64,000 nt of DNA, taken from positions 1,646,037 through 1,710,036 of the forward strand of contig OY764266.1 in NCBI GenBank assembly GCA_963668365.1. The letters run 5' to 3'. Shown here piece by piece: positions 19,660-47,038 of the stretch. Source of the stretch: Pseudomonadales bacterium (GTDB taxonomy: Bacteria > Pseudomonadota > Gammaproteobacteria > Pseudomonadales > Azotimanducaceae). The first letter of the stretch is position 1. Each line of letters begins with the position of its first letter. A program made the position numbers and the translations under genes. The notes beneath the pieces were generated by a model that made no database searches, was not told where the DNA came from, and saw nothing but the letters and a program-made list of their open reading frames with translations.

Positions 19660-19730
19660 ACCATTGTACCCCCCCCCCTGCGCGAAGCTGTCAACACCTC
19701 GCACTGTCCATTGTTGTCAACAAATAGAAG
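19660..19730. promoter_or_regulatory. TonB-receptor upstream region with a C10 homopolymeric tract (~19669-19678) and a perfect 13-nt palindrome TTGTTGTCAACAA (~19711-19723)
   Basis: Seen directly in the sequence, 135-190 nt upstream of the receptor start codon in the 270-bp gap to the upstream gene. Confidence 0.5.
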
Positions 19731-32854: not shown

Positions 32855-33220
32855 ATGCCCGACTACGACGGCACGATCACCCTTTCCATCCCCGTGCAGG
32901 ATCTCGATGCATCACTGGCATGGTTCTCCGACAAGCTGGGCTTCCAGGAAATGTTCAAGGTCGCCGAAGCTGGCTGGGCTGAGGTAAGCACACCCGCCGA
33001 GGGCGTCACCATCGGCCTCAACCAGGGCGCTGAGGGGACCGGCGGTGCGACGCCCGTGTTCGGGGTCGAAGACATCGACGCCGCGCGCGCCGAACTTGAG
33101 GCCAAAGGCGTGCAGTTCGAAGGCGAAACGATTGAGCTTCCCGGCATGGTCAAGCTGGCGACGTTCCTCGACCCGAACGGCAATCGCTACATGTTCGCCC
33201 AATCGCTGATGGACGGATAA
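32855..33220 (+). CDS. VOC family protein (glyoxalase/bleomycin-resistance fold)
   Basis: 121 aa with beta-alpha-beta-beta-beta modules (LSIPVQDLDASLAWFSDKLGF... and LATFLDPNGNRYMF). AAGGAG RBS. Confidence 0.7.
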   Translation: MPDYDGTITLSIPVQDLDASLAWFSDKLGFQEMFKVAEAGWAEVSTPAEGVTIGLNQGAEGTGGATPVFGVEDIDAARAELEAKGVQFEGETIELPGMVKLATFLDPNGNRYMFAQSLMDG

Positions 33221-33249
33221 GCCGCGACGCTCGGATTGGGGGACAGTCG

Positions 33250-33510
33250 ATGCCGAAGCCGACCAGGAAGAAGTACATCGAGGATCTTGATCCGGTCGAG
33301 TTCATGGCGGTCCTGGACGAGGGTGGCCGCAAATTCAACGAGGAATGCGACCGGTTGGGGATATCGCGCGTGATCGAGATCGATGGCGAGACCGTGCTTT
33401 ATCACCCCGACGGGTCGTACACGCCGATGCCGGACCCGGATGATCGAGAAGCCGTCCTGGCCCTGTTCCGGCAGTACAAGGTCTCGCTGGATGGCGTTCG
33501 ATACCACTGA
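33250..33510 (+). CDS. small hypothetical protein, putative antitoxin partner of the downstream zeta-like gene
   Basis: 86 aa. Overlaps the start of the P-loop gene by 20 nt. No recognised family. Confidence 0.4.
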   Translation: MPKPTRKKYIEDLDPVEFMAVLDEGGRKFNEECDRLGISRVIEIDGETVLYHPDGSYTPMPDPDDREAVLALFRQYKVSLDGVRYH

Positions 33511-34198
33511 CCGGCCGCGCTTCACCCTGTTTGCGGGCCCGAACGGGTCGGGCAAGACCACGGCGTACCGCCGCTTTCTGGATGCGGGCTATGAGGCCGG
33601 CGAATACCTGAATGCGGACGATATCGCGAGACGGTTGGCGGCGACCTAGAGCCAGACCGCGGCGGAAGTGCGGGCTGGACGAGAAGTGATCCGGCGTACG
33701 CGATCCCTGATCGCGGCCCGAAAGCCGTTCGTGCGGGAAACCACGCTGTCGAGCCAGGAGATCCTTCGCAGCGTTTCCTCCGCGCGTGCGGCGGGCTTTC
33801 GTATCGTCGTGGTGTTCATCGGCATCCAGTCGACAAAGACAGCCAGGAGCCGAGTCACGTTTCGCGTCGCATCGGGAGGTCACGACATTTCGCGACAGGC
33901 CCAGGAAAAGCGGCTTCCCCGTTCGTTGGAAAACGCGCGCCGAGTCGCCGGCATCGCTGACGTTGTCTACTTCCTGGACAACTCGGGGCAGCAGCACAAA
34001 CTGGTGGCGACCGTGTGCGAGGGCACGATCACTTTTCTGGATCATTCGCAGGCCGATTGGCTGGATCGGGCGATAGCGGGTTTGCCACGAGCGCCGTCAC
34101 TCGTCTCGCGGGACGAGGCCCTGAAACGGTTGCGCGAGGCGGAGAGATTGTCTGACAGCCTGCGCGTCAGGGAGGGCGAGACCACCTGCTCGGCTTGA
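33491..34198 (+). pseudogene. zeta-toxin-like P-loop kinase/ATPase gene with an in-frame TAG after codon 52
   Basis: Walker A FTLFAGPNGSGKTTAYRRF at the N-terminus and a GGHDISRQ downstream motif. The same frame is interrupted by TAG at 33647-33649 and continues from 33668. Confidence 0.5.
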
Positions 34199-34395
34199 TC
34201 TCAAGGGGCGAGTGCGGATCGCCGCTCCACCTTTGCGTGGCCCTGGCTGGCAGCTCGGAATGAACGTCTCCCGCTTTTTGCGGATTTCCTGCACTTTCCG
34301 GTTAATGTGCTCCCCTACCATTTGTTCGTCTGCAGCGAAACGTGGAGTTGTCCGTGGGCGTGGAAGAGTCCGAGTCGCCTCCCTCAACCAAGAGC

Positions 34396-35763
34396 ATGCG
34401 GGGTATTGGACTCAATCCGCGCTCCGTTTCACTGCGGTTCGTCGTCGTCGCCCTCCTCATAGGCGCGTCGATGATTCCGCTCGGGCTCGTGCGGTGCACT
34501 GTTCAAGATCGGGAGCTTTATCGCGACGAGGCGGTCGAGGACATTGCCCATTCCTGGGGCCAGGCGCAGCGCATCGTCGGTCCCATTTTGCTCATTCCTA
34601 TCGCTGATGGCCCGAGCGAACGTCGCGAGGTCGGCAAGAAAGTGGTGTCTTCAGAGCGGGTAGACATCCGCATCGTTGACGACAGCCGAAGCGAGCGTCG
34701 CGAGGAGTACGTCGCGGTGATGCCCGAGCACATGAATCTCCGAATTGAGACCGGTTACGAGATGCGTCGGCGAGGGATCTTCGGGGTTCCCGCATTCAGT
34801 CTGGCCATCGTTGCAGAGGGAGCGTTCGCGCCCCTCGATGTGGAAGAACTCCGCAACCGGAACGGTGATCTGCGCCTGGACCTCGCCTCGATCGGCATCG
34901 GCATATCCGATCCGCGCGGGATTCGCGATGCGACCCTCGTGTGGCGCGATGGCAAGGTGGACTTGACTGCCGCTTCAGGTGGAGGGCCAGTCAGGAGCGG
35001 CCTGAACGGTGAATTGGGGGATGCCGCGGTGCCTGGCGGTGACTTTTCCCTCTCGCTCGACATGCGGGGCACGAGTCGGTTCTCGGCGGTGCCGGTGGGT
35101 GACCGCTCGACGGTGGCAATGAAATCGACGTGGCCGCACCCAAGTTTCGATGGCCGCGTGCTGCCGGATAAGCACGACATCAGTGACGATGGTTTCACGG
35201 CCTCCTGGACCATGCGCGACCTGGCGCGCGGATTCCCCGGGGTGATGCGCGTTACGTCGATTAGCGGAGACTACTTCAAGGAGAAGGACGTGGGTTTCAC
35301 CGTCTTCGAGCCCGTCGACCTGTACAGCAGCGTTGCCCGGAGCATCAAGTATGGTGTGCTGTTCGTGGTATTGACCCTGGTGAGCGTGCTCTGCCTCGAG
35401 TTGGCGACCGGCATTCGATTTCACTTCGTGCAGTACGGCGTGACGAGCGTTGCCCTGGTGATCTTTTTCCTGACGCTACTGGCGCTTGCGGAACACATCG
35501 GGTTTACGCTGGGCTATGTTGCGGCGGCCGTCTTGCTCACCGGCATGATCAGTTGGTATGCGTTTGGTTCGACGGGCAACCGACGGCTCGCACTTGCGGC
35601 GTTCGGCTCGCTCGCGGCCTTGTACGCCGTGCTCTACACGCTCCTGCGATTGGAGTCCTTTGCGCTCCTTGTCGGAGCAGCGGTGCTGCTTGCGGCCCTG
35701 GCGATGCTCATGCGCGTGACGCGCGGGCTGACGCCGACTGCCGAAGCAGAAGCGCCCGATTAA
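34396..35763 (+). CDS. creD: cell envelope integrity protein CreD
   Basis: N-terminal TM, large periplasmic domain, C-terminal cluster of TM helices (YGVLFVVLTLVSVLCLE...). Start at ATG 34396 matches the CreD N-terminus. Confidence 0.7.
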   Translation: MRGIGLNPRSVSLRFVVVALLIGASMIPLGLVRCTVQDRELYRDEAVEDIAHSWGQAQRIVGPILLIPIADGPSERREVGKKVVSSERVDIRIVDDSRSERREEYVAVMPEHMNLRIETGYEMRRRGIFGVPAFSLAIVAEGAFAPLDVEELRNRNGDLRLDLASIGIGISDPRGIRDATLVWRDGKVDLTAASGGGPVRSGLNGELGDAAVPGGDFSLSLDMRGTSRFSAVPVGDRSTVAMKSTWPHPSFDGRVLPDKHDISDDGFTASWTMRDLARGFPGVMRVTSISGDYFKEKDVGFTVFEPVDLYSSVARSIKYGVLFVVLTLVSVLCLELATGIRFHFVQYGVTSVALVIFFLTLLALAEHIGFTLGYVAAAVLLTGMISWYAFGSTGNRRLALAAFGSLAALYAVLYTLLRLESFALLVGAAVLLAALAMLMRVTRGLTPTAEAEAPD

Positions 35764-35775
35764 CGGATCGCCGTA

Positions 35776-36966
35776 TCAGATCGCCTTCGCTTCGCGCAGG
35801 GCGGAGATTTCCGCGTTGGTAAGGCCGGCTTCCCGCAGCACCTCATCCGTGTGCTCGCCGAGTTCGGGCACGGCGGCGTTCGGTTCCAGGGGCGTCTCGC
35901 TCATGCGGATAGGCGTTGCCACGATCCCGCGGCTGTCGCCGTCACTGTCCGGCGCTTCCGTGAAATAGCCGTTTTCCCAGGTGCCGGGATCGGCCAGCGC
36001 CTGTCGATGGTCGCGCACCGGGGCGTACCGAACGCCGGTGTCACGCAGGGCGTCGCACCACGCGTCGGTAGTCCGGGTCCTGAACACCTGCGCCAGTTCT
36101 TCACGCAGCCAGGTATGAACCTCCGGCGTCATTTCCCTGTCCCGCAGACGCTCGTCGACGGTCAGGTCGGGGCGTTCGAGGGCGATGAAGAACGCGTCCT
36201 TTTCGCGGCCACGCACCCCGACGATGGCGATCCAGCCATCGGCCGTCGGGAAGAGGTCGTAGATGGTCCTGATCATCGGATGACCGAGGTTCGCGCGGCC
36301 GGCGACCCGATCGGTCAGCATGAGATGGGTGTATTCGGCGGCTTGCGCCCATATCTGTCCCCCGAGAAGCGACACGTCAACCTGTTGCCCGCGGCTGGTG
36401 TGGTTCCTGTGGTGCAGCGCCGACAGGATTCCCGCGACCATGTTCAGCGAGGCGATGTGATCGGCGATGAAGATGGCGACGGGAGACGCCGGATCGCCGT
36501 CGCGTCCCGTGGTGCTCACCAGTCCGCCGGCGGCTTGCGCCGCGAGGTCTGCACCCTGGCGCGCAGCGTCGGGTCCCAATGATCCGAAAGTGCTTCCCTG
36601 GGCACAGATGATGCGCGGATTGACGGCGGCGAGATCGTCCTGGCCGAGTCCCCACTTTTCCATGGTGCCGGGTGTGAAATTGGTGATCACCACATCGGCG
36701 TCTCGAACTAGGCGCTTGAAGACCCCGGCACCCTCGGGATGGCCGAGGTTCAGGGAAACGCCGCGTTTGCCGCGGTTGCAGGCGCTGAAGACGGCACTGC
36801 GCGGATCGCCCGGCTCGACCTTGATGTTGCGACTGTGGTCGCCGTACCCGGGGAGTTCGATCTTGATGACATCGGCGCCCATGTCGCCCAGCAGGAGCGA
36901 TGCCTGGGGCCCCTGTATCAACAGGCCCGCCTCGAGTACCCGAATGCCGTCTAGTGGCCCTGCCAC
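35776..36966 (-). CDS. CoA transferase, family III (CaiB/BaiF)
   Basis: [37 protein letters not shown]... and the conserved Asp region. Confidence 0.8.
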
Positions 36967-38828
36967 GATTGCTCCTCCCGTATCTCTCCTTGCGCGGAAC
37001 TCCCCGGGGCGCCTGCGGGCTCAGGGTTCTCCTCTCCGCGCAGGGCGTCGAGAAATGCCGCGCCGTAGCGCTCAAGTTTAGCTTGGCCGACGCCGTGTAT
37101 GGCCAGCATCTCCTCGAGGGAGACCGGACGCCGATGCAGCATCTCCTTCAGCGTGGCGTCGTGGAAGATCACGTAGGGCGGCACGCCCGCCTCCTCCGCC
37201 AGGTCCCGACGGCACTGCCGAAGCGTTTCCCACAGGCCCTGGTCCTTTGGATCGACTTCGAATACTTCCCGCCGGCTGACGGTCCGGGCACGGGCTTTGA
37301 CGGATGCATCCTTGCGTAGCCGCACGGTCCTTTCGCCGCGCAGCACGCCCCTGGCGTCGGCCGTCAGACGCAGCGCCCCGAAGCGCGCGTCGTCGGCGCG
37401 CACGAATCCCTGGACCATGAGCTGGCGCACGAACGAGCGCCACTCGGTGACCGACAGGTCGGCCCCGATACCGTAGGTGCTCAACCGTTCGTGCCCCCAC
37501 TGGCGAATCTTCTCCGTGTCTTTGCCGCGCAGGACGTCGATCACGTGGCCCGCGCCGAAGCGCTGGCCCGTGCGATAGATGGCGGAGAGGAGCTTCTGCG
37601 CCGCAGTGGTGCCGTCCTGCGTTTCGGGCGGCGTCAGGCATACGTCGCAGTTGCCGCAGTCCTCGGGGAGATCGTCGCCGAAGTGCCGAAGCAGCGCGCG
37701 GCGTCGGCAGGTCGTCACCTCGCACCAGCCGAGAAGGGCGTCGAGCTTGCCGCGATCGATCCGCTTGTGCTGATCGTCGGCCTCGGACATGTCTACCATC
37801 TGGCGCATTCGAACCACGTCCTGAAGGCCGTAGACCATCCATGCCTCCGCCGGGTCGCCGTCGCGCCCGGCCCGGCCGGTCTCCTGGTAGTAGGCCTCGA
37901 CGCTCTTCGGCAGGTCGACGTGGGCGACGAAACGGACATCGGGCTTGTCGATGCCCATGCCGAACGCGATGGTGGCGACGACGATCACGCCGTCTTCGCG
38001 CAGGAACCGGCCCTGAGATGCGGCGCGGACGTCGCCGGGCAAGCCGGCATGGTAGGGCAGCGCGGTGAACCCGCGCGCGTTCAGCATTTCCGCGATCGAT
38101 TCCGTTTTCTTGCGCGTCATCGCGTAGACGATTCCCGCTTCGCCTCGGCGCTCTTCGAGAAAGGCGCGCAGCTGGGCGTTGGCGTCGGTCTTCGCGCGCA
38201 CGGTGTAGCGGATGTTGGGCCGGTCGAAACCGCTGACAAAGCGCTCGGCCCCAGAGTCGAACGCGAGCTTCGCCAGGATGTCGTCGCGCGTGGTGGCGTC
38301 CGCCGTGGCCGTCAGCGCCATGCGCGGAACGCCCGGGAACCGGTCGCGCAATACGTCGAGACCGAGATAGTCCTGGCGGAAGTCGTGGCCCCATTGCGAT
38401 ACGCAGTGGGCCTCGTCGATGGCGATCAGGGACAGGTCGACGCCCGCGAGAAGAGACAATGTGTCCTCCTGCAGCAGACGCTCCGGCGCGAGATACAGCA
38501 AGTCTAGCGCACCGGCCCGCACTGCTTCGATGATGCGCCACTGCTCGTCGTGCGCGAGGGTCGAATTCAGGAACGCGGCGCGCACGCCGAGTTGCCGCAG
38601 GGCTCCGACCTGGTCCTGCATCAACGCGATGAGCGGCGAGACGACGACACCGGTTCCCGGCCGAATGATGGAGGGCAACTGGTAGCACAGGGACTTGCCG
38701 GCGCCCGTGGGCATGACGACCAGGGTGTCGCGGCCCGCGAGCGCGGCGGCGAGGACCTCTTCCTGGGCGTCGCGAAAGTCGGTATAGCCGTAGATCTCCC
38801 GCAGCAGGTCGCGCGCGTGCTGGATCAT
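36951..38828 (-). CDS. recQ: ATP-dependent DNA helicase RecQ
   Basis: DEAH helicase motifs ([30 protein letters not shown]), Zn-binding Cys cluster, RQC and C-terminal HRDC. Start at ATG 38828. Overlaps the CoA-transferase gene by 16 nt. Confidence 0.9.
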
Positions 38829-38945
38829 GCGCGTTCCCGTGTGTGTTCCATTGGGTCCGAGAGTTCCTTCGCTCCGCTCACTCGGCGGAATGCAAATCGC
38901 GTATTCGCCCATGGTCTTCCAGCTTGTCCGACGCGGCTTGGGCGA

Positions 38946-39965
38946 TCATTTTCGCTCGGCAACTCGGTTCGTCGCGCCAAAGATAGAGACCACTCGATCC
39001 AAGTACTTTCGGATGTCCAGCGAAAGCGCTCTCAACGCCAGAACCGGGAACCTTGGATACTCGTCGGCATGGGCACCTGCGGTCAGCATTCGACAGGCGG
39101 ACCGAAGAGCAACCAGCAAGAACATGCAGGATTCGATACCTTTGTCCGCAACAGGGCTGGTCGGCCTGTTCAGGACGCCTACGAGTGGTAGATCGCCGAA
39201 GCCGCGCCCCTCAACCCCCAACGCTTTCGCCAGTGCGCGCGCTACGTTCGGCAAGTCCGCAGAGCTGCAGGAGTTCATATGCCCCCAAAGACGTGCGACG
39301 ATGCTGTCGTTTCTTCCCGGTCTGGTACTGGGCCGGTAACGGGATACGTTCCCTGATAGCTCCTTCAGCTTTTGTTCACTCGTTTCCAAACAATCTGCCA
39401 AACCGCCGTCGAATACCCTGTCGTTGAGGCTCTGTATGGTCCTCTTAGTCGACGACATCTGCGCGAGTCGCTCCACAAGCACGACGTCTAGCTCATACAA
39501 CAATCTCGAGAGATCGCCAAGTGCTGCCACTTCGTCGCTCAACGGCACGCCCGTCGACCAAGTCAAATCCTGAACCGTCGTTGCAACCAGCGCACCCCGC
39601 ACTCGCTCAACGGGCCACCAGTCGGGTAGTTGCACGGGCGACGACGCATCCGCGATGTTCAACTCGCGGCGTGCCAACAGGACCAAGTCAACGCCCACCG
39701 CTCCGTCACCTATCGCTTCGATCTCCGTCCGCGCAGCTTCGAGCATGTCCGCAACATCCGTCATGACCGAGTTCGCGTCGTTGAACACGCCCGGATCGCG
39801 CACGACCCAAGGAACAGTCGCGCGATCTCCGCCGACGGCCCGCACGGCGAGATCTTTCGCAAAGCGGTCACGGCTCTCGTCGAAGACCAGGATCCAGAAT
39901 ACGCGCAGATCCTCTCCGGAAGGACGTCGCCGAATCTCGTCGGTTACTTGCCCGGTGCCAAGCAC
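38946..39965 (-). CDS. hypothetical protein (339 aa), downstream partner of the P-loop NTPase
   Basis: GTG start 7 nt after an AGGAG that overlaps the NTPase stop codon (translational coupling). No recognisable domain. Confidence 0.5.
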   Translation of the reverse strand: MLGTGQVTDEIRRRPSGEDLRVFWILVFDESRDRFAKDLAVRAVGGDRATVPWVVRDPGVFNDANSVMTDVADMLEAARTEIEAIGDGAVGVDLVLLARRELNIADASSPVQLPDWWPVERVRGALVATTVQDLTWSTGVPLSDEVAALGDLSRLLYELDVVLVERLAQMSSTKRTIQSLNDRVFDGGLADCLETSEQKLKELSGNVSRYRPSTRPGRNDSIVARLWGHMNSCSSADLPNVARALAKALGVEGRGFGDLPLVGVLNRPTSPVADKGIESCMFLLVALRSACRMLTAGAHADEYPRFPVLALRALSLDIRKYLDRVVSIFGATNRVAERK

Positions 39966-39973
39966 AGACGCTC

Positions 39974-42187
39974 CTAATCGACTTGCGGGCGCGCGGATGC
40001 CGCCAATCTTCCGAGAACCCGGATTCTCGAACTGACCGACTCGCCATCGAAGGACAGGAAGTTGGCCATCGCCGCCTGCATGAGAATCTCAGTCCACGGC
40101 CTGATTTCTCGACCGTTCGGCTTCGGCACACGATCCACCAGTGCCCGAAATCCATCCTTGTCAACAGACCCCTCACCAAGGTAGTGCAGTATCCAGTACA
40201 CGGCATATACCCACGGATTCGTCTTGAATGCCCGAGTTGACATATTCCTCGTAATATAGTCGCGGAAGAAGGCGAACTCTGGTTGCAGGGCGACGCCCCC
40301 GTTGTCGAGCTTCGCCTCCCTGAACCGTACGAAGTCATGGTCGTCAACAGCGTCGGAAGCGCTCCAGCGCCGCTCGATGAGCCACTCGACGAACGCGACC
40401 AGTACGTTTACGGTCAACCAAGGATGTCCGGCCACTTCCTCGAACAACTCGTTTGCGAACCCCGACGAAAATTCCAGTCTTCCGCCGAATACTCTGCCGA
40501 TCAGCTCTGCGAATTCGCCCGACGTCGTGTTAACGCGGTGTTCGAACAGCGGAAACGCCTCCTGTTTCACGTACGGAGCCAGTTGATTCTGGTCCATCAA
40601 CACGAAGTGTGCGTCTGGTTGCTGGCCGAGGAAAACGACTAGATTGTGTATCGAAAAAGCAAGAAGCTGGTTCAAGAAAGGCTCGAGGAGATTGAGACGA
40701 ACCTTTTCGTTGTCCTCGTTGGCGCGAAAGTGGCGAAACAGCGACTCGTACTCGTCGAGTATCAGCACTATCCTGTCGCTCTCCTTCTTGCCGGCGTCAT
40801 CGACATCCGGGATGCATGACCTGACGAGGTCGAAGACGAAACCGTCGTCAATCGCTACGTCGTTCGTCTTGGCGTCCTTTAATGCGTTTCTAAAACCCCG
40901 CATGAACGCGTCGCTGGCATACCCCGTCTTCGCGCCGCAAGTTTCCTTGAGGACCAACGTCCGGTCCGATCCCGACTCGAGATCCACGCAGGCGGTGGTC
41001 TTTCCGCTGCGCCGTATGCTGCACCATAGCCGGACCCCACTGCCCTCTCGGTCAGACACACGAAGCAAATCGCGCACGCTCGTTCGAGTGACGTGAAAGT
41101 GCCGGACCTCGTCCGGTTTCTGTAATGGAAATTCCCGAGCAAAGTTGTACGTTAACGGTCCGCCACCTCGCCATGCGCTTACGTATTGCAGGAACACGTC
41201 GTCCAAGATCCGGAAACACCGATTGGTCTTTTCGTCAGGCTTGTCGCCGGCGAATACAAGCGCATCGACCATTCCGGGCTTTTTCTTCATAGACGACGTC
41301 GCGTCCGGTCTCATCGGCGCGACGATCAGCCTCACCCGATTCCGCCAACAGTCCTCTATATCCGCCGTCGATGCATCTTCGAGAAACGATGCCACGCGAG
41401 GCGTCGTGTTGTTGGCGGGCCCCGGCGGCCTAAGGTAGATGTCCAACCGGCGCTTCGGCGACTCGGCGAACTGGCACTCGACAGGCATCGGCGCAATCGC
41501 TGGTCGTTGCCCTTCTCCGAGCCAGTCGATGGCATGCAATACGGGTGCTACCGAAGCGTCGATGGCGTCCGCCAATAAGCCGGTACCCATTCGTTTGCGT
41601 ACGCTCGCCGCGTCACGATGCGTCATGAATCCCAGGTAGCTCAGCCATGCCTGGGGGGCATCGTCTAGGCATCTGCCGCCGGATGCCGATCCGAAGGTTG
41701 CCGAAGCGAACCCGTTGACTATCCCGGCGAACGCGCCAGAACACACTGATCGAAGTACGGTTGCGTCGTGCGCGTCTGCGCTCGATATCCGCTCCGAATA
41801 GAATTCAAGGGGCAGTCTCAGGAACGAACGCAATCCATTGAGCGCCTTGTGCAGGGCTTCCTCATGTTCAACGTGGTTGTCTCGGGCGAACGAATAGCCC
41901 TGCGAGAAGATCTGGTTGGCATGCTCGGACAACGCACGTCCCCATGCTTCGGACGCGGTATGGGGTGAGGCTTCGTTCTTGGCGTCCTTGATTGCGGCGG
42001 CGAGGTCTCTGTCCAGGCAATCCTTGTAGGACGTCGTCCATTGGAAAAGGTGTTTGCGCTGCAGGTTGTCCAGCGAGCTGCGAAAGGCCGCGAGGTTCGG
42101 CGAGTGGTAGTCGATCAGGTACTCGGCTTGGCGTTCGACGATCTCTGGGGGGGGGGCGACCTCTGTTGGCGGCGAGCTTGCCGTCAA
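39974..42187 (-). CDS. large P-loop NTPase (AAA_14/STAND-like ATPase core flanked by unknown N- and C-terminal domains)
   Basis: Walker A GVRLWCSIRRSGKTTA (about aa 385-398) and Walker B RIVLILDEYE (about 472-480) with about 80-aa spacing. The first 380 aa and last 250 aa are unassigned. Annotated start is TTG, only 30 nt upstream of a G10 tract. Confidence 0.55.
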   Translation of the reverse strand: MTASSPPTEVAPPPEIVERQAEYLIDYHSPNLAAFRSSLDNLQRKHLFQWTTSYKDCLDRDLAAAIKDAKNEASPHTASEAWGRALSEHANQIFSQGYSFARDNHVEHEEALHKALNGLRSFLRLPLEFYSERISSADAHDATVLRSVCSGAFAGIVNGFASATFGSASGGRCLDDAPQAWLSYLGFMTHRDAASVRKRMGTGLLADAIDASVAPVLHAIDWLGEGQRPAIAPMPVECQFAESPKRRLDIYLRPPGPANNTTPRVASFLEDASTADIEDCWRNRVRLIVAPMRPDATSSMKKKPGMVDALVFAGDKPDEKTNRCFRILDDVFLQYVSAWRGGGPLTYNFAREFPLQKPDEVRHFHVTRTSVRDLLRVSDREGSGVRLWCSIRRSGKTTACVDLESGSDRTLVLKETCGAKTGYASDAFMRGFRNALKDAKTNDVAIDDGFVFDLVRSCIPDVDDAGKKESDRIVLILDEYESLFRHFRANEDNEKVRLNLLEPFLNQLLAFSIHNLVVFLGQQPDAHFVLMDQNQLAPYVKQEAFPLFEHRVNTTSGEFAELIGRVFGGRLEFSSGFANELFEEVAGHPWLTVNVLVAFVEWLIERRWSASDAVDDHDFVRFREAKLDNGGVALQPEFAFFRDYITRNMSTRAFKTNPWVYAVYWILHYLGEGSVDKDGFRALVDRVPKPNGREIRPWTEILMQAAMANFLSFDGESVSSRIRVLGRLAASARPQVD
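42147..42156. repeat. G10 (C10 on the coding strand) homopolymeric tract inside the 5' coding region of the NTPase locus
   Basis: atctctgggg ggggggcgac. Encodes the PPP of VAPPPEIV in the NTPase frame and of GRPPP in the upstream frame. Confidence 0.85.
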
Positions 42188-42422
42188 GCAGTTCCTTCAG
42201 TTCCCGATAGCGGCGCATTGCGCGCCCGCCCGATTTCGCGGGCGGCCTGGGTTCGAACTCGCGGATCAGTTCGCAGAAATCTTGCTGCCAAGTCGTGAGT
42301 TCGACGCGACCCAAGTTTCCGATCAGCATCCTTACCATATCCGCCGGATGTTCCTTATGGCCCTTGGCCATCGCATCGCGGATCTCCCTGAGGTGGTCTT
42401 CTATGGCCGTCGCCGTTGGCAT
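42157..42422 (-). other. upstream ATG-initiated reading frame (-1 frame relative to the NTPase) that runs into the G10 tract
   Basis: ATG 42422 preceded by GGAG. Encodes MPTATAIEDHLREIRDAMAKGHKEHPADMVRMLIGNLGRVELTTWQQDFCELIREFEPRPPAKSGGRAMRRYRELKELLDGKLAANRGRPPP. A 1-nt contraction of the tract would fuse it in-frame to the NTPase ORF. Confidence 0.4.
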
Positions 42423-42966
42423 CTCCAGACTCCGTCCGCCCGTATCCAGTCGGGAACGGGCATTCCGTTCCATCAGCAAGGCTTGACGCTGCATGCAGTG
42501 GGACAATGATAAGGCATTGGAGTCGGCGAGTTCTCGCGGCCATCCGGCGAGGTGTCGGGTCCGTGGGCGACGTTCCAATCGAGGCCGACGAGCCAGTCGC
42601 GTGCCGCTTCCTCTACGGAGTTTCGCTGAAACTCATCGCGGAGCTTTGCTGACGCAATTCCCCGTGCGAGGGGAATGTGGGGGTACCCGTCGCTCAAAGC
42701 GGCTGGTGCCCGGATCCGTCACCAACTTGGCGATTGGGTTGAAGGAGGCGGCCAATCTGCGACGAGGCGTAGTGGCCGCGGCTATCCGTCTGTGGCGTCG
42801 GCTGCGATTCTAGCAACGCGCCGAGTGATCGTCTCTTTGGCGCTGGCCCATGCGGCTGACCACAGGCATAGGTTGCGCCCGTACTGCGGGCCACAGCTTG
42901 GTCGGAGGTGACCGCCACCCTGACCTTGCGAGTCCTCTCGCACGCTGACCAAGAACCCCGTCTCTC

Positions 42967-44070
42967 TCACGCCCCCCGCAGACACGACTCCACCAGGGGT
43001 CCGGTCACATTGAGGCTGTCGTTTATCAGGGTGATGATGCCGTGGCCGCTGCAGACCTCGTCCGGGGCGGGGTTTGTATGTACGCCGCGCTGGTCGAAAT
43101 ATCCCATCGGGATGCCGGCGTTGCCGCGGGCGAAACTCACCACCACGTCGCGCCAGAGAAGCCCCTCGAATTGCGCGTCGAAACGGGCGAGCCGTCCGGC
43201 TTCGTGGGTGAACATCGTTTCCAGCACCTGCTCGACGCCGGGCGCGGTCAAGGCGCGCACGACGAATTCCGGGTAGGCGCGGATCGGCCGGATCACGGTG
43301 GTGGCGCCGGCTTCGAGGATGCGTTGGCGGTTTGCGTCATCCACCACCTCGGCCACGATGGTGGCCCGCGTTCCCAGCTCGCGGATGCGGCCGAGGATGT
43401 CGTACGTGTGCGCGTCCGAGCGGGCATCGTAGATTTCGTCGGCGACGATGATGATGCAGCGCGCGTGGCTGACATTGGCCGCGGCCAGGTTCTCGGAGTT
43501 CTCGGCCATGGCGCAATACAGGGTGACGCCGGCATCGACGAGTTCGTTGCCCAGGCCGTCCTCGAAGTCGGGCGTCAGCAACTGTATCGGAATGTCGCTG
43601 AGGCGCGGCGCGCGCCGGACGTGGTCCACCAGCCGCGGCAGGTAGTTCTCGGCGTCCCGGGACGGGACGTTGATTACCAGCAGATGATCTTTCATGTTGC
43701 TCCACCTGATTTCTCCGCGCCGCCGGCGATCCCGTTGCAGCGCGCGATAGTCGAATATGTACGTGGCGATCTGCGCCAGCAGGAAGGTTCCGAAGACATA
43801 GATGCACACCACCGTGGCCAATCGACCGGCGGCTGTGACAGCGGAAGCGTCGCCGTAGCCGACGGTCGTCGCGGTGGTCATCGTGAGCCACGCGGCATCG
43901 CCGGGGGTCATGTCCTCGAACACGATCATCGCCACCACGTGCAGGCAGAACAGTCCCGCGAACAGGGCGGCCGTCAGATAGAGGCGCCGCTTGATCGCGC
44001 CGGCGACGTACCGCGTGTAGCGCAGGTATCGCCGTCGGCGCAGGAGTCGCCAGAGCATAGGGGCAGGCAA
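42967..44070 (-). CDS. potassium channel protein with RCK/TrkA-N domain
   Basis: Selectivity filter TTVGYGD within a 2-TM pore module, followed by a Rossmann-like RCK domain. Confidence 0.8.
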   Translation of the reverse strand: MPAPMLWRLLRRRRYLRYTRYVAGAIKRRLYLTAALFAGLFCLHVVAMIVFEDMTPGDAAWLTMTTATTVGYGDASAVTAAGRLATVVCIYVFGTFLLAQIATYIFDYRALQRDRRRRGEIRWSNMKDHLLVINVPSRDAENYLPRLVDHVRRAPRLSDIPIQLLTPDFEDGLGNELVDAGVTLYCAMAENSENLAAANVSHARCIIIVADEIYDARSDAHTYDILGRIRELGTRATIVAEVVDDANRQRILEAGATTVIRPIRAYPEFVVRALTAPGVEQVLETMFTHEAGRLARFDAQFEGLLWRDVVVSFARGNAGIPMGYFDQRGVHTNPAPDEVCSGHGIITLINDSLNVTGPLVESCLRGA

Positions 44071-44161
44071 GGGGGTTATCGCGACAGTCGCATCGCCGAA
44101 GAGACTATCAGGGCGATGCCGAGTGCTTCAATGCGACGGGATGATGGGACGGGATGATGGC

Positions 44162-44503
44162 TTACGCGTCGTCCAGTTGTGACTCGATCTCTTCCAGCAC
44201 GCAACGTTTCAGGACTTGCGGGTCGGCGTCCGGCTTGGCGTAACGCTCTGCGAGGACGCGGAGGTCGGAATCGCTGAAGGACAGGCTGATGCGCGGGCGC
44301 TGTATCTTGGAGAAGGGCAGCCCCACGAGTTTTCTCACGTAGTCGGAATAGCTCAGGTCCGCTGCCGCGGCGGCGAGGCGGACCTTGCGCAGCAGCGACT
44401 GGCGGAACTCGAAGTGAACCTGGATCTTCCGCAGCGCCTGCCGTTCAGCCTGAAACCGTCCCGGCTTCGGTTCGCGGGCGGCGCGACGCGAAGATGCTCT
44501 CAT
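44162..44503 (-). CDS. small ribbon-helix-helix (MobC/CopG-like) DNA-binding protein
   Basis: RKIQVHFEFRQSLLRKVRLAAAAADLSYSDYVRKLVG fits the RHH pattern of MobC-type proteins. Start moved to ATG 44503, which overlaps the DUF4178 stop. Confidence 0.4.
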   Translation of the reverse strand: MRASSRRAAREPKPGRFQAERQALRKIQVHFEFRQSLLRKVRLAAAAADLSYSDYVRKLVGLPFSKIQRPRISLSFSDSDLRVLAERYAKPDADPQVLKRCVLEEIESQLDDA

Positions 44504-45147
44504 CCCTGGCCCGGCCACATCGACTCGATGACGTCCGGCGGGCAGTTCACTTCGGCGAAAACTTCCGTCTCGCCGTCGGCCGAGACCTCTACGCTGAGGC
44601 CATAGCGACCGGAGTCGTCCTCGCATTCGTGGCAACGCAGTTCCTCGGCGTCGTCGTCCTGCAGCCGCGATGGCGTTTCGCCGCGACAATCGCGGTCATA
44701 GTAGTAACCCTCGGCCCACTTCTTCGTCTGCGCGTAGCGGTCCGCTATCCATCCCTCGTACTTTGGTGGGGGATCGGTCACCTCAAGTTCGGCGAAGTCT
44801 TCGTCCCACAGCGCGGCGAACGCATCCTCGTCGAAGAGCCGCAACACATCGGCTCGGGGCACCGTTCGGGAAAGGGACATTTCGCTTGCGTCGCCGGCGT
44901 CGAACCCGAGATAGATTCGGTCTCCGCCGGTTCCGTCCAGGGTCAGTTCGGCGTAGAGGCCGTCTTCGAAGTGGTACGCGCCCACCGCGCTGACCTCGAA
45001 CGTCTGTCCCTGGACCTCGGGCGGCAGGAGCAGGCGGTGCTTGAACGTCAGGAGGTCGCCGGCCGCGAGATCGCCCGGACCGGACAGTTGGCGCGGCGAG
45101 TCGTCGTCGCGCTTGCCGAAACGGCTCCTGAGTATCTTCCGCAGCAC
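44500..45147 (-). CDS. DUF4178 domain protein
   Basis: 215 aa, 6 nt downstream of pspA. The DUF4178/PspA gene pairing is common. Confidence 0.55.
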   Translation of the reverse strand: MLRKILRSRFGKRDDDSPRQLSGPGDLAAGDLLTFKHRLLLPPEVQGQTFEVSAVGAYHFEDGLYAELTLDGTGGDRIYLGFDAGDASEMSLSRTVPRADVLRLFDEDAFAALWDEDFAELEVTDPPPKYEGWIADRYAQTKKWAEGYYYDRDCRGETPSRLQDDDAEELRCHECEDDSGRYGLSVEVSADGETEVFAEVNCPPDVIESMWPGQG

Positions 45148-45153
45148 GACTGG

Positions 45154-45849
45154 TCAGCCCGATTGCCTGGCCTTGAGCCGCGCGAGAACGTCCGATCCCG
45201 CCGATGCGCCCGAAGCGCCGATTCCCTTGGCCTTCAGTTTCGCGTCGATGTCGTCGACACCTTCCTGCGACTCCATCCATTCCCCGGCTTCCATGCGGTC
45301 CTGCCAGTTCTGCTGCTTGGCCTTGACGCGGTCGAGCGCCTGGGACACCCGGTGTCCCTTCGATCCCGTCGCCGCGAAGTTGCGCGAGACGCTTTCCGTG
45401 GCGCGCTGCAGCTCCTGTACCGTTCGCACCTTGTCCAGTTCACGCTTGTTCTTCTGGATGGTTCGCTCCCGGGCCTTGATCATGGCGTGGATCTTGTTGA
45501 CCTCCCCGTTCAGTGCCGCCTGTTCGCCGGCCTTGTCGTCGCGCTCGCCTTCCAGTTCGGCAATGCGCTCGGCGACCTCCGTCGCGAGCGCCTCCTCGCC
45601 GGCGTTAAGTGCCGCGATAGCCTTCTGCTCGTAGTCGGCGATGTCCGCGCCCAAGGTGGACAGGTCCCGCTTGAGGCCAATCTCGGAACTCTTCATGCGC
45701 GTCAGGCTCTGCTTCGCGCTGGCTATCGCCGATTCGGCGTCGCGAATCTCCTGTTCGAGAATGCGGATGGCGTTGGCGTCTACGATGGCCTCGCCGACTT
45801 CGTTTGCGCCGCCTCTCACGGCCTGCATCAGGTCTTTCAGTACACCCAT
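45154..45849 (-). CDS. pspA: PspA/IM30 family protein (YjfJ-like)
   Basis: MGVLKDLMQAVRGGANEVGEAIVDANAIRILEQEIRDAE... followed by a long coiled coil. Start at ATG 45849. Confidence 0.75.
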   Translation of the reverse strand: MGVLKDLMQAVRGGANEVGEAIVDANAIRILEQEIRDAESAIASAKQSLTRMKSSEIGLKRDLSTLGADIADYEQKAIAALNAGEEALATEVAERIAELEGERDDKAGEQAALNGEVNKIHAMIKARERTIQKNKRELDKVRTVQELQRATESVSRNFAATGSKGHRVSQALDRVKAKQQNWQDRMEAGEWMESQEGVDDIDAKLKAKGIGASGASAGSDVLARLKARQSG

Positions 45850-45910
45850 GTTGTTTGCCTCTCTCGTGTTGCTTTGCTTCGGTTTGTCGCGTAAATCCCC
45901 TGAATTCGGT

Positions 45911-46312
45911 TCAGGCCAGCAGGTGTTCCACGGCTTCGAGCACGTCGATGGTGTTTTCCGCCTGGACCTCAAGTTCGTGGGCGATCACCTCGAACCGTGT
46001 CGACAGCGCCATGGCGCCGAAGAGAATGTAGGTCTCTCCCTGCAAGCCGATGGATGACAGTGGCACGGCGGGGCTCAGGCGCAGGAAGATCGCATTGAGT
46101 TCCTCGATATTGTCGGGCTCGACTTCGGAAATGTTGAAAAGGGGTGTCACCGCGAGGATCTGCGTCTCCGTCTGGGTGACGTGGATGGGGAATTCGTCGT
46201 TGTTCGAGCAGGTGACCTCCAGGATATCTTGCTCCGTCACGAGCGCATCGAAGGTGGTGCCTTCCTCGCCGTCGAAATCATTCAGCCGGAAGGCCAGCTC
46301 GTCCAAGGTCAT
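45911..46312 (-). CDS. DUF2170 (YjfI-like) family protein
   Basis: MTLDELAFRLNDFDGEEGTTFDALVTEQD...TETQILAVTPLFNISEVEP. In E. coli yjfI sits next to the pspA-paralog yjfJ. Confidence 0.55.
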   Translation of the reverse strand: MTLDELAFRLNDFDGEEGTTFDALVTEQDILEVTCSNNDEFPIHVTQTETQILAVTPLFNISEVEPDNIEELNAIFLRLSPAVPLSSIGLQGETYILFGAMALSTRFEVIAHELEVQAENTIDVLEAVEHLLA

Positions 46313-46446: not shown

Positions 46447-46770
46447 TCAACGGGCCAGGCGTTCGAGGAGGAGGCTGGACAGGTCGCGCCGCGCGTCGAG
46501 GACCGCGGTGACGTAGACGTTGCGCGCGTCGTACCGATACACGATCCGCCAGGGGCCCTCGACCAGTTCCCGGTAGGTCTGCACACCGGCCGCTCTCAAC
46601 TCCGGAACGATGCGCCCTCGCTGGGGCATGGGCCCGAGACTCAGGCAACGGCGCTCCATCCGTTCCAATACTGCGAGCGCATTGGACGGCGTGTTCTCGG
46701 CGATGAACTGGACAATCTGCTGAAGGTCGAGTCTTGCGGCGTCCGTCCACCGGACCTGACGGTCAGCCAT
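46447..46770 (-). CDS. type II toxin RelE/ParE family
   Basis: 107 aa. ...RIVYRYDARNVYVTAVLDARRD C-terminus. 8-nt overlap with the upstream Phd gene. Confidence 0.7.
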   Translation of the reverse strand: MADRQVRWTDAARLDLQQIVQFIAENTPSNALAVLERMERRCLSLGPMPQRGRIVPELRAAGVQTYRELVEGPWRIVYRYDARNVYVTAVLDARRDLSSLLLERLAR

Positions 46771-47038
46771 CGCTGGCCGTCAACTGTCCCTTGATGTCTC
46801 GGAACACCTCGTCCTGAGGCGTGGTGCGGCCTGCCGAGATGTCTATCTCGCCCTGGACCATGAGCTTCAGCATCAACAGGGCGTCCTGCAGGCGCTGGTG
46901 CGATTCGTAGTCCTGTACGACCGCGCTGGCTGCGCCGCGTTGCGTCAGCACGACCACCTGTTCGGAGGACTTCATCTCCGCAAGCATCTGCGCCGCCCTG
47001 GCCTTGAATTCGCTCAGGCTTACGATGGACGTTGGCAC
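46763..47038 (-). CDS. type II antitoxin Phd/YefM family
   Basis: MPTSIVSLSEFKARAAQMLAEMKSSEQVVVLTQRGAASAVVQDYESHQRL is a Phd/YefM signature. Confidence 0.75.
   Translation of the reverse strand: MPTSIVSLSEFKARAAQMLAEMKSSEQVVVLTQRGAASAVVQDYESHQRLQDALLMLKLMVQGEIDISAGRTTPQDEVFRDIKGQLTASDG

Follow-up and report, generated by a model that had tools for sequence, protein, structure and literature searches.

The 64,000-nucleotide (nt) stretch analysed here (the window; contig OY764266.1, positions 1,646,037 to 1,710,036) comes from a Pseudomonadales bacterium of the Azotimanducaceae. On its minus strand, at 38946..42536, it carries a portable cassette made up of a conserved 114-nt leader, an ATPase gene and a partner gene. 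The ATPase gene opens with an ATG at 42422, preceded at a distance of 7 nt by a GGAG, and its first segment (42157..42422, minus strand) encodes residues 1 to ~88, a small helical N-terminal domain. This frame runs into a homopolymer of ten cytosines on the coding strand (C10, or G10 on the plus strand; 42147..42156), and the tenth base puts the rest of the gene (39974..42146, minus strand) out of frame with its start codon. The remainder encodes helical-repeat and small α/β domains, an AAA+/STAND-like NTPase, a lid with a Gly-His-Pro motif and a winged-helix-like C-terminus. The largest open reading frame (ORF) at the locus is a minus-strand ORF at 39974-42187 that begins with TTG and spans 737 amino acids (aa). 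The partner ORF (38946-39965, minus strand; 339 aa) has a GTG start 8 nt past the TAG stop of the ATPase gene, and an AGGAG overlaps that stop, so that the partner gene is tightly coupled translationally to the ATPase gene. An earlier note on this DNA had given correct positions for ORFs, Walker motifs, partner gene and G10 tract alike; it was also right about the tight coupling, though it gave the spacing from the stop codon as 7 nt.

The length of the tract sets the reading frame. From the native ATG, the C10 of the window leaves a frame of 184 aa (41868..42422, minus strand), consisting of ~91 native residues followed by out-of-frame residues. In silico removal of one base (C9) yields an ORF of 815 aa, and addition of one (C11) yields a product of 102 aa. 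The C9 form exists in nature: a 3.73-Mb contig (L001, ERZ25084387) with the same synteny, including recQ, encodes the fused 815-aa protein with 100% identity. Window and L001 are 99.63% identical across 22.4 kb and have no single-nucleotide polymorphism (SNP) at all in the ~10.5 kb from 33024 to 43543, where C10 versus C9 is their sole difference in the operon. In the two sequence clusters that hold this protein and the 737-aa ORF, every other listed member has 815 aa, except one of 838 aa.

The segment upstream of the tract is conserved in the family, whose members are ~800 aa long. Residues L30, L33, W45, F56 and L75 are at least 90% conserved in the family profile (56 sequences; ATPase residue numbers are those of the 815-aa protein throughout). 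Across the first 82 loci of the family (individual loci carry L-numbers), matches of the profile hidden Markov model begin at profile positions 1-12 in 79. Compared with four close relatives, the whole ATPase gene has a ratio of nonsynonymous to synonymous substitution rates (dN/dS) of 0.13-0.23, and its first 91 codons taken separately have one of 0.15-0.41. Given the intact allele in L001 and the conserved N-terminal segment, the 737-aa ORF is evidently an artefact of ORF calling, the 3' part of an 815-aa gene with a +1 frameshift. The earlier note's proposal that the upstream frame is the true N-terminus and that a nine-base run restores the gene is borne out by this near-identical genome, as it is by the alignment of orthologous loci that the note had suggested, in which both frames are fused in the ~800-aa relatives, N-terminal segment included. 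The large ORF with a weak TTG start that it described is not a gene in its own right. The 737-aa 'gene' should be entered in annotation as a frameshifted 815-aa gene, even if the cassette turns out to have no defence phenotype.

The frameshift might alternatively change regulation and leave function in place, if the 737-aa product were initiated at the TTG and worked as an N-terminally truncated isoform. The TTG does have an AAGGA 5 nt ahead of it, and in the predicted structure the truncation point would fall inside a disordered linker, with all downstream domains intact. Yet the domain that would be missing is the one retained in nearly all loci under purifying selection, no family member begins at the equivalent position, fragments aside, and the TTG sits within the frame translated from the native ATG. 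We regard such an isoform as very improbable. Taking the gene as frameshifted, translation from the native ATG would end after 184 aa in the window genome and the shift should abolish the ATPase. Since the partner gene is coupled to it, the partner is probably poorly translated too, its production being reduced through the coupling.

Long homopolymers are rare in the window, which has only two of at least 8 nt (42147-42156 and 19669-19678), the next longest being 7 nt. Against dinucleotide shuffles the excess of long G runs is moderate, with four overlapping G9 matches observed, a mean of 0.86 in shuffled sequences and 5 of 100 shuffles reaching four. The earlier note's view of the G10 run as exceptional thus stands for the rarity of such runs and is tempered by the shuffles. 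In the AlphaFold 2 model the N-terminal domain is joined to the rest of the protein by a low-confidence linker (residues 86-102), and the C tract codes for the PPP in it. Homopolymer runs of this kind are prone to slippage. A proline-coding C9 run in the linker would have gained one base to become C10, bringing the ATPase gene out of frame; because such a run is slippage-prone, the OFF state should in principle be reversible. ON/OFF switching is mechanistically plausible, and three alleles are on record, one OFF (C10, window) and two ON (C9, in L001 and L090, both with intact genes of 815 aa). The tract thus appears to be polymorphic in length among close relatives, and a scan of JGI metagenomes returned no further tract alleles.

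The uninterrupted tract is confined to these three genomes. L090 (ERZ23495349) is 94.8% identical to the window at the nucleotide level, whereas in L002, L003, L004, L005, L086 and L087 (88-93% identical) the proline or serine codons at the same site are broken up by T. Runs of at least 8 nt occur across the 82 loci at 0.27 per 10 kb inside the gene pair versus 0.19 outside, and none of them falls at the same position. The tract apparently arose recently, as a side effect of synonymous T-to-C changes within a single high-GC sub-lineage. Because T interrupts it in relatives and homopolymers are not enriched in the family, we read it as a lineage-specific, intrinsic slippage hot spot and not as a conserved contingency switch; it is not the built-in feature that the earlier note had described.

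These observations bear directly on the view taken in the earlier note, that the locus is an evolved contingency locus in which a selected slipped-strand tract alternates expression and silencing of a costly defence system. Length does toggle the frame, nine versus ten bases separate genomes that are otherwise identical across the operon, and a relative diverged by 5% (L090) retains the uninterrupted C9. The window's other long homopolymer fills the promoter spacer of a TonB-dependent receptor gene, and the lineage may use G tracts for phase variation. However, the chance expectation that nine bases stay unchanged over 5% divergence is ~60%, the alleles on record number three, and neither the interrupted codons of the relatives nor the background frequency of long runs speaks for selection. 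An evolved switch seems unlikely, and the claim of phase variation is weaker than first proposed. What remains of it is a possible toggling by tract length, with one OFF and two ON alleles.

Established contingency loci offer a comparison. Like the present gene, phase-variable restriction-modification (R-M) and surface genes of Neisseria, Haemophilus, Helicobacter and Campylobacter have, early in the coding region, a G/C homopolymer (9-10 nt) in which a one-base change toggles the frame; here, ON and OFF alleles occur in near-identical genomes. In those genera, contingency tracts are conserved among orthologues and enriched genome-wide. The tract described here, in contrast, is confined to one sub-lineage and is not a feature of the family. 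Slippage would here have inactivated such a cassette in an uncultured symbiont, a concrete example that can be checked.

The second long homopolymer of the window, G10 on the minus strand at 19669-19678, fills the spacer of a near-consensus promoter, TTGACA-N20-TACAAT (19663-19694), ~128 nt upstream of the ATG (19535) of the TonB-dependent receptor gene. A more distant sister genome used for comparison of this promoter (L088, 3230-3290) has a G11 tract and a spacer of 18 nt between the hexamers TTGACC and CACAAT. Phase-variable promoters classically have this arrangement, and in this case the tract is conserved between the window and L088.

A further alternative is that the true tract has nine bases and the gene is intact, the C10 call being a homopolymer-length error in a long-read metagenome assembly. 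Homopolymer length is the classic error mode of long reads, and the change in question is a single base within a 10-mer. All other listed close relatives are full-length, and the operon, without SNPs relative to L001, bears no other signs of decay. Set against this, no other homopolymer differs between window and L001 in the 22.4 kb compared. There are three indels besides the tract; two affect repeats (a tandem duplication of 13 bp and a single AACCG unit) and look biological, and the third is a single base at 45151, in a SNP-rich segment. The C10 call could be an error of this type, and we count the possibility among the points that weigh against a real frameshift, but we think it rather unlikely.

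The predicted ATPase is a multidomain protein with a P-loop core. The AlphaFold 2 model (mean predicted local distance difference test score, pLDDT, 80.6; predicted template modelling score, pTM, 0.47) shows helices at 4-84, the linker, a helical-repeat domain at 108-303, a small α/β domain at 313-418, the NTPase at 449-600, a lid with the invariant G-H-P at 665-667 and a C-terminal region of helices and strand. The Walker A motif SIRRSGKTT (40994..41020, minus strand) contains R471, S472, G473, K474 and T475, and the Walker B motif LILDEYE (40745..40765, minus strand) contains D556, E557 and Y558; all of these residues are invariant in the family (56 sequences). The equally invariant G665-H666-P667 (40421..40429, minus strand) lies in the helical lid that follows the NTPase and resembles the GxP motif of STAND NTPases. 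STAND NTPases are defined by a P-loop with Walker A GxxxxGK[ST] and Walker B hhhhD[DE], a helical domain with a GxP motif and then a winged helix. Of these features (definition of Leipe et al. 2004) the P-loop is found throughout the 56 sequences, and the Gly-His-Pro motif may correspond to GxP.

Fold and profile searches do not assign the ATPase to a named family. Foldseek returned only weak matches, led by 2fna and 2qen (E ~7e-4 to 9e-4), the archaeal AAA+ ATPases SSO1545 and PABY2304, and followed by RuvB, ORC/Cdc6, RFC, the plant immune receptor (NLR) RPP1 and CED-4; the N-terminal part weakly matched HEAT-like repeats. In Pfam, the family matched AAA_22 alone, in 10 of 56 members with a best E of 7.6e-5, and none of NB-ARC, NACHT or AAA_16. 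Scans of Pfam, NCBIfam, PADLOC and PHROGs gave nothing significant for either protein or for 56 homologues. Neither matches any family in PADLOC-DB v2.0.0 at E up to 1, none of the 56 ATPase homologues does at E up to 0.01, and sequence-profile searches of the PDB gave no match for either protein. The ATPase family profile does not reach other P-loop families among 1.84 billion sequence representatives. The earlier note's description of a P-loop ATPase outside the named families is confirmed by these scans, including the PADLOC run that it had suggested. The Foldseek search of a predicted model, likewise its suggestion, gave the weak AAA+/ORC/CED-4 matches above and no family with high confidence.

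The nearest known analogues are the STAND/AAA+ immune NTPases (Avs/AVAST, CED-4/Apaf-1 and plant NLRs) together with 2fna and 2qen. Like the ATPase, these have a P-loop core with Walker A and B motifs. The helical lid of the ATPase with its invariant G-H-P and the winged-helix-like C-terminal region may be further points of likeness, and the helical-repeat domain found here could serve as a sensor. Unlike STAND NTPases, the ATPase matches no NB-ARC, NACHT, AAA_16 or Avs model; its repeat domain is N-terminal and not C-terminal, it has no fused effector domain, and the system includes an obligate separate partner of 339 aa.

The partner protein looks like a P-loop/RecA-like α/β sandwich that lacks a Walker A motif, followed by a helical domain with invariant C291, H299, Y303, P304 and D317. 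It is no detectable paralogue of the ATPase, as an hhalign comparison of the partner family with the ATPase family showed no homology. A HEPN-type Rx4-6H motif in the helical domain, judged by eye, was also dropped since its arginine is not conserved. Comparison of L004 (3776/3777) with L003 (4940-5449) shows a deletion of ~500 bp that takes the C-terminal half of the partner gene in L004.

The cassette behaves as a unit. Nucleotide similarity of 88-95% to L002-L005, L086, L087 and L090 covers the cassette only, from 42536, 114 nt upstream of the ATG, to the partner stop codon (~38951), and the flanks are unrelated in each genome. The leader (42423..42536, minus strand), which may hold the promoter, aligns in all eight close relatives, and sequence farther upstream diverges. 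Together, these limits point to 38946-42536 as a self-contained, horizontally transferred cassette of ~3.6 kb belonging to an uncharacterised family. A consensus scan of the leader's coding strand found no sigma-70 site, and folding of the leader alignment gave no covariation support for an RNA structure. The leader contains a 7-bp inverted repeat, GGAACGG-N5-CCGTTCC (42440-42465, minus strand), ~40 nt before the ATG; its pairing is partly kept in relatives through G-U-type changes, with no real covariation signal.

A HMMER scan of the 1.84 billion representatives recovered 381 relatives of the ATPase, nearly all full length, corresponding to ~380 representatives at 50% identity. In 76 of the 82 loci the ATPase gene is immediately followed by the partner gene, and these pairs are found in sponge-associated Gammaproteobacteria, Vicinamibacterales, Longimicrobiales/Palauibacter, many actinomycetes, Pseudomonas and Burkholderiales. 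A 27%-identical pair (L089) is located between IS6 and IS110 elements on the Klebsiella pneumoniae plasmid NZ_CP115715.1 (45912-49321). Its proteins, WP_159215432.1 (801 aa) and WP_159215431.1 (334 aa), are both annotated as 'hypothetical protein' and occur on clinical IncFII/IncR conjugative plasmids; this pair would lend itself well to experiments. Searches of IMG/VR and PHROGs gave no relatives. A literature search by accession number returned nothing, and none of the libraries searched (Pfam, NCBIfam, PADLOC, PHROGs and PDB) describes the family, its two non-ATPase regions or the partner. The kind is nonetheless a familiar one, that of small cassettes in defence islands which pair an ATPase with a second protein, and the slippery tract is an addition here.

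No third gene is conserved family-wide. The only one that recurs is a 487-aa gene directly after the partner gene, with an NYN (PIN-like nuclease) domain (Pfam, E 5e-12), which forms a three-gene variant in nine actinomycete loci (L038, L043, L045, L047, L053, L054, L055, L068 and L073; for example L054 13283-14758). Both cassette genes are intact in 61 of 82 loci and ~15 are disrupted. The disruptions are insertions in L006, L018, L020, L021, L057, L067 and L072, and frameshifts or stops in L009, L019, L044, L058, L070, L075 and L081; they occur mostly in long-read metagenome-assembled genomes of sponge-associated symbionts, often as 1-2 kb insertions inside the ATPase or partner gene.

Relatives of the cassette recur beside known defence genes in unrelated genomes, in a minority of loci; the scan of neighbours used crude gene calling and raw counts. 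In L086 and L087, the cassette sits between a Type I HsdS gene and HEC-01A/B (PADLOC E 3e-119 and 6e-64), and HsdM and HicAB are found upstream. The cassette of L002 comes after a Type I methyltransferase (HsdM) and a Fic protein matching PDC-S04/SoFic, and that of L003 after a partial HmaC-like gene; that of L083 precedes DUF4238-Pers, and that of L085 has PDC-S01 and AbiEii in its vicinity. The HmaC-like gene upstream of the cassette in L005 is truncated. Among 132 non-redundant nearest neighbours there are single strong matches to GajB, LmuB, Drt4, HEC-05, PDC-S02, a Type III restriction endonuclease and PDC-S60.

This setting recalls the candidate systems HEC-01 to HEC-09, small cargo cassettes in or beside multi-gene immune systems (Hma, R-M), for which Payne et al. 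reported that seven of nine candidates embedded in Hma loci reduced phage plaquing (10.1101/2024.01.29.577857). An ATPase with a second protein is the commonest architecture among the HEC candidates, as here, and HEC-09 has an NYN domain (10.1101/2024.01.29.577857). The ATPases of HEC-01 to HEC-04 are of ABC type and have TOPRIM, NERD or PIN partners (10.1101/2024.01.29.577857), whereas the ATPase described here is AAA+/STAND-like, its partner carries no nuclease signature and no HEC model matches the cassette.

Taken as a whole, the data are best explained by a portable, uncharacterised cassette that most likely acts in defence against phages or mobile DNA and whose ATPase gene is frameshifted here by C10, a reading that we favour with modest confidence. 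The earlier note's suggestion of a defence-type role fits the relatives' neighbourhoods (HsdS/HEC-01, HsdM/Fic, HmaC-like, GajB, LmuB and Drt4), and a new defence candidate with an accidental on/off tract is plausible. With its N-terminal helical domains the AAA+/STAND-like ATPase would detect a cue, and it would act as a nucleotide-dependent sensor or switch, by way of nucleotide-dependent oligomerisation or DNA binding; the partner would be its adaptor or effector, and in some actinomycetes the added NYN nuclease would take over the effector job. As no effector domain can be recognised in either component, the mechanism would need working out from scratch.

Several observations weigh against this explanation, beginning with that lack of an effector domain. 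The low pTM leaves the domain arrangement of the ATPase uncertain. The window cassette itself is flanked by a K+ channel gene and recQ, and most neighbours in the family are ordinary metabolic genes. The ~15 disrupted loci would also fit a dispensable or decaying element with another function. The metabolic neighbours, the integrases among the nearest neighbours (3 of 132) and the disrupted loci would also fit a cassette that is not immune at all, either a selfish or addiction module or a regulatory ATPase pair on mobile DNA whose presence in defence islands reflects hitch-hiking; the insertion-sequence flanks on the Klebsiella plasmids and the lack of any PADLOC match among the 56 members would suit it too. 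Other points argue the opposite: the cassette has repeatedly been inserted within or next to R-M, Hma, HEC, Gabija, Lamassu and DRT loci, nine of its loci carry the optional gene for an NYN nuclease, and it is absent from the phage collections (IMG/VR, PHROGs). We consider the non-immune alternative rather unlikely.

A bolder version of the defence reading would be an undescribed anti-phage system, composed of a STAND-like ATPase with a helical-repeat sensor, a degenerate P-loop-fold partner with a novel function and, in some lineages, an NYN RNase, that is genuinely phase-variable through poly-G in a sponge-associated lineage, beside a poly-G TonB-receptor promoter. This is quite improbable in our estimation. 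If true, it would extend contingency-locus biology to uncultured high-GC symbionts. Should the cassette protect against phages or plasmids, a new family would be added to the bacterial immune repertoire, with hosts that include sponge symbionts, soil Acidobacteriota and Gemmatimonadota, actinomycetes, Pseudomonas and clinical Klebsiella plasmids.

The immediate surroundings of the cassette in the window appear to be particular to its lineage. The earlier note had stressed the position directly upstream of recQ. A functional link to recQ was rejected, since recQ adjoins the cassette only in the window/L001 lineage; the adjacency is a lineage-specific coincidence without functional meaning. The recQ gene has the canonical domain set (RQC, HRDC and Zn-binding domains). 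On the other side, a PhdYeFM antitoxin/ParE toxin pair lies ~4 kb upstream of the cassette (~46447-47038; L001 5397-5988), according to the gene calls for L001.

Between the cassette and this pair, the 2.4 kb at 43543-45971 hold the K+ channel gene, two small ORFs and a PspA-like gene. This segment contains 61 of the 63 SNPs that separate the window from L001, with two in the remaining ~20 kb, and the cluster looks like a recombination tract. The 13-bp tandem duplication (CCATCATCCCGTC) lies within it at 44135-44147, in an intergenic stretch ahead of the K+ channel gene. The AACCG difference is at ~32707, where an intergenic pentanucleotide repeat has one unit fewer in the window than in L001.

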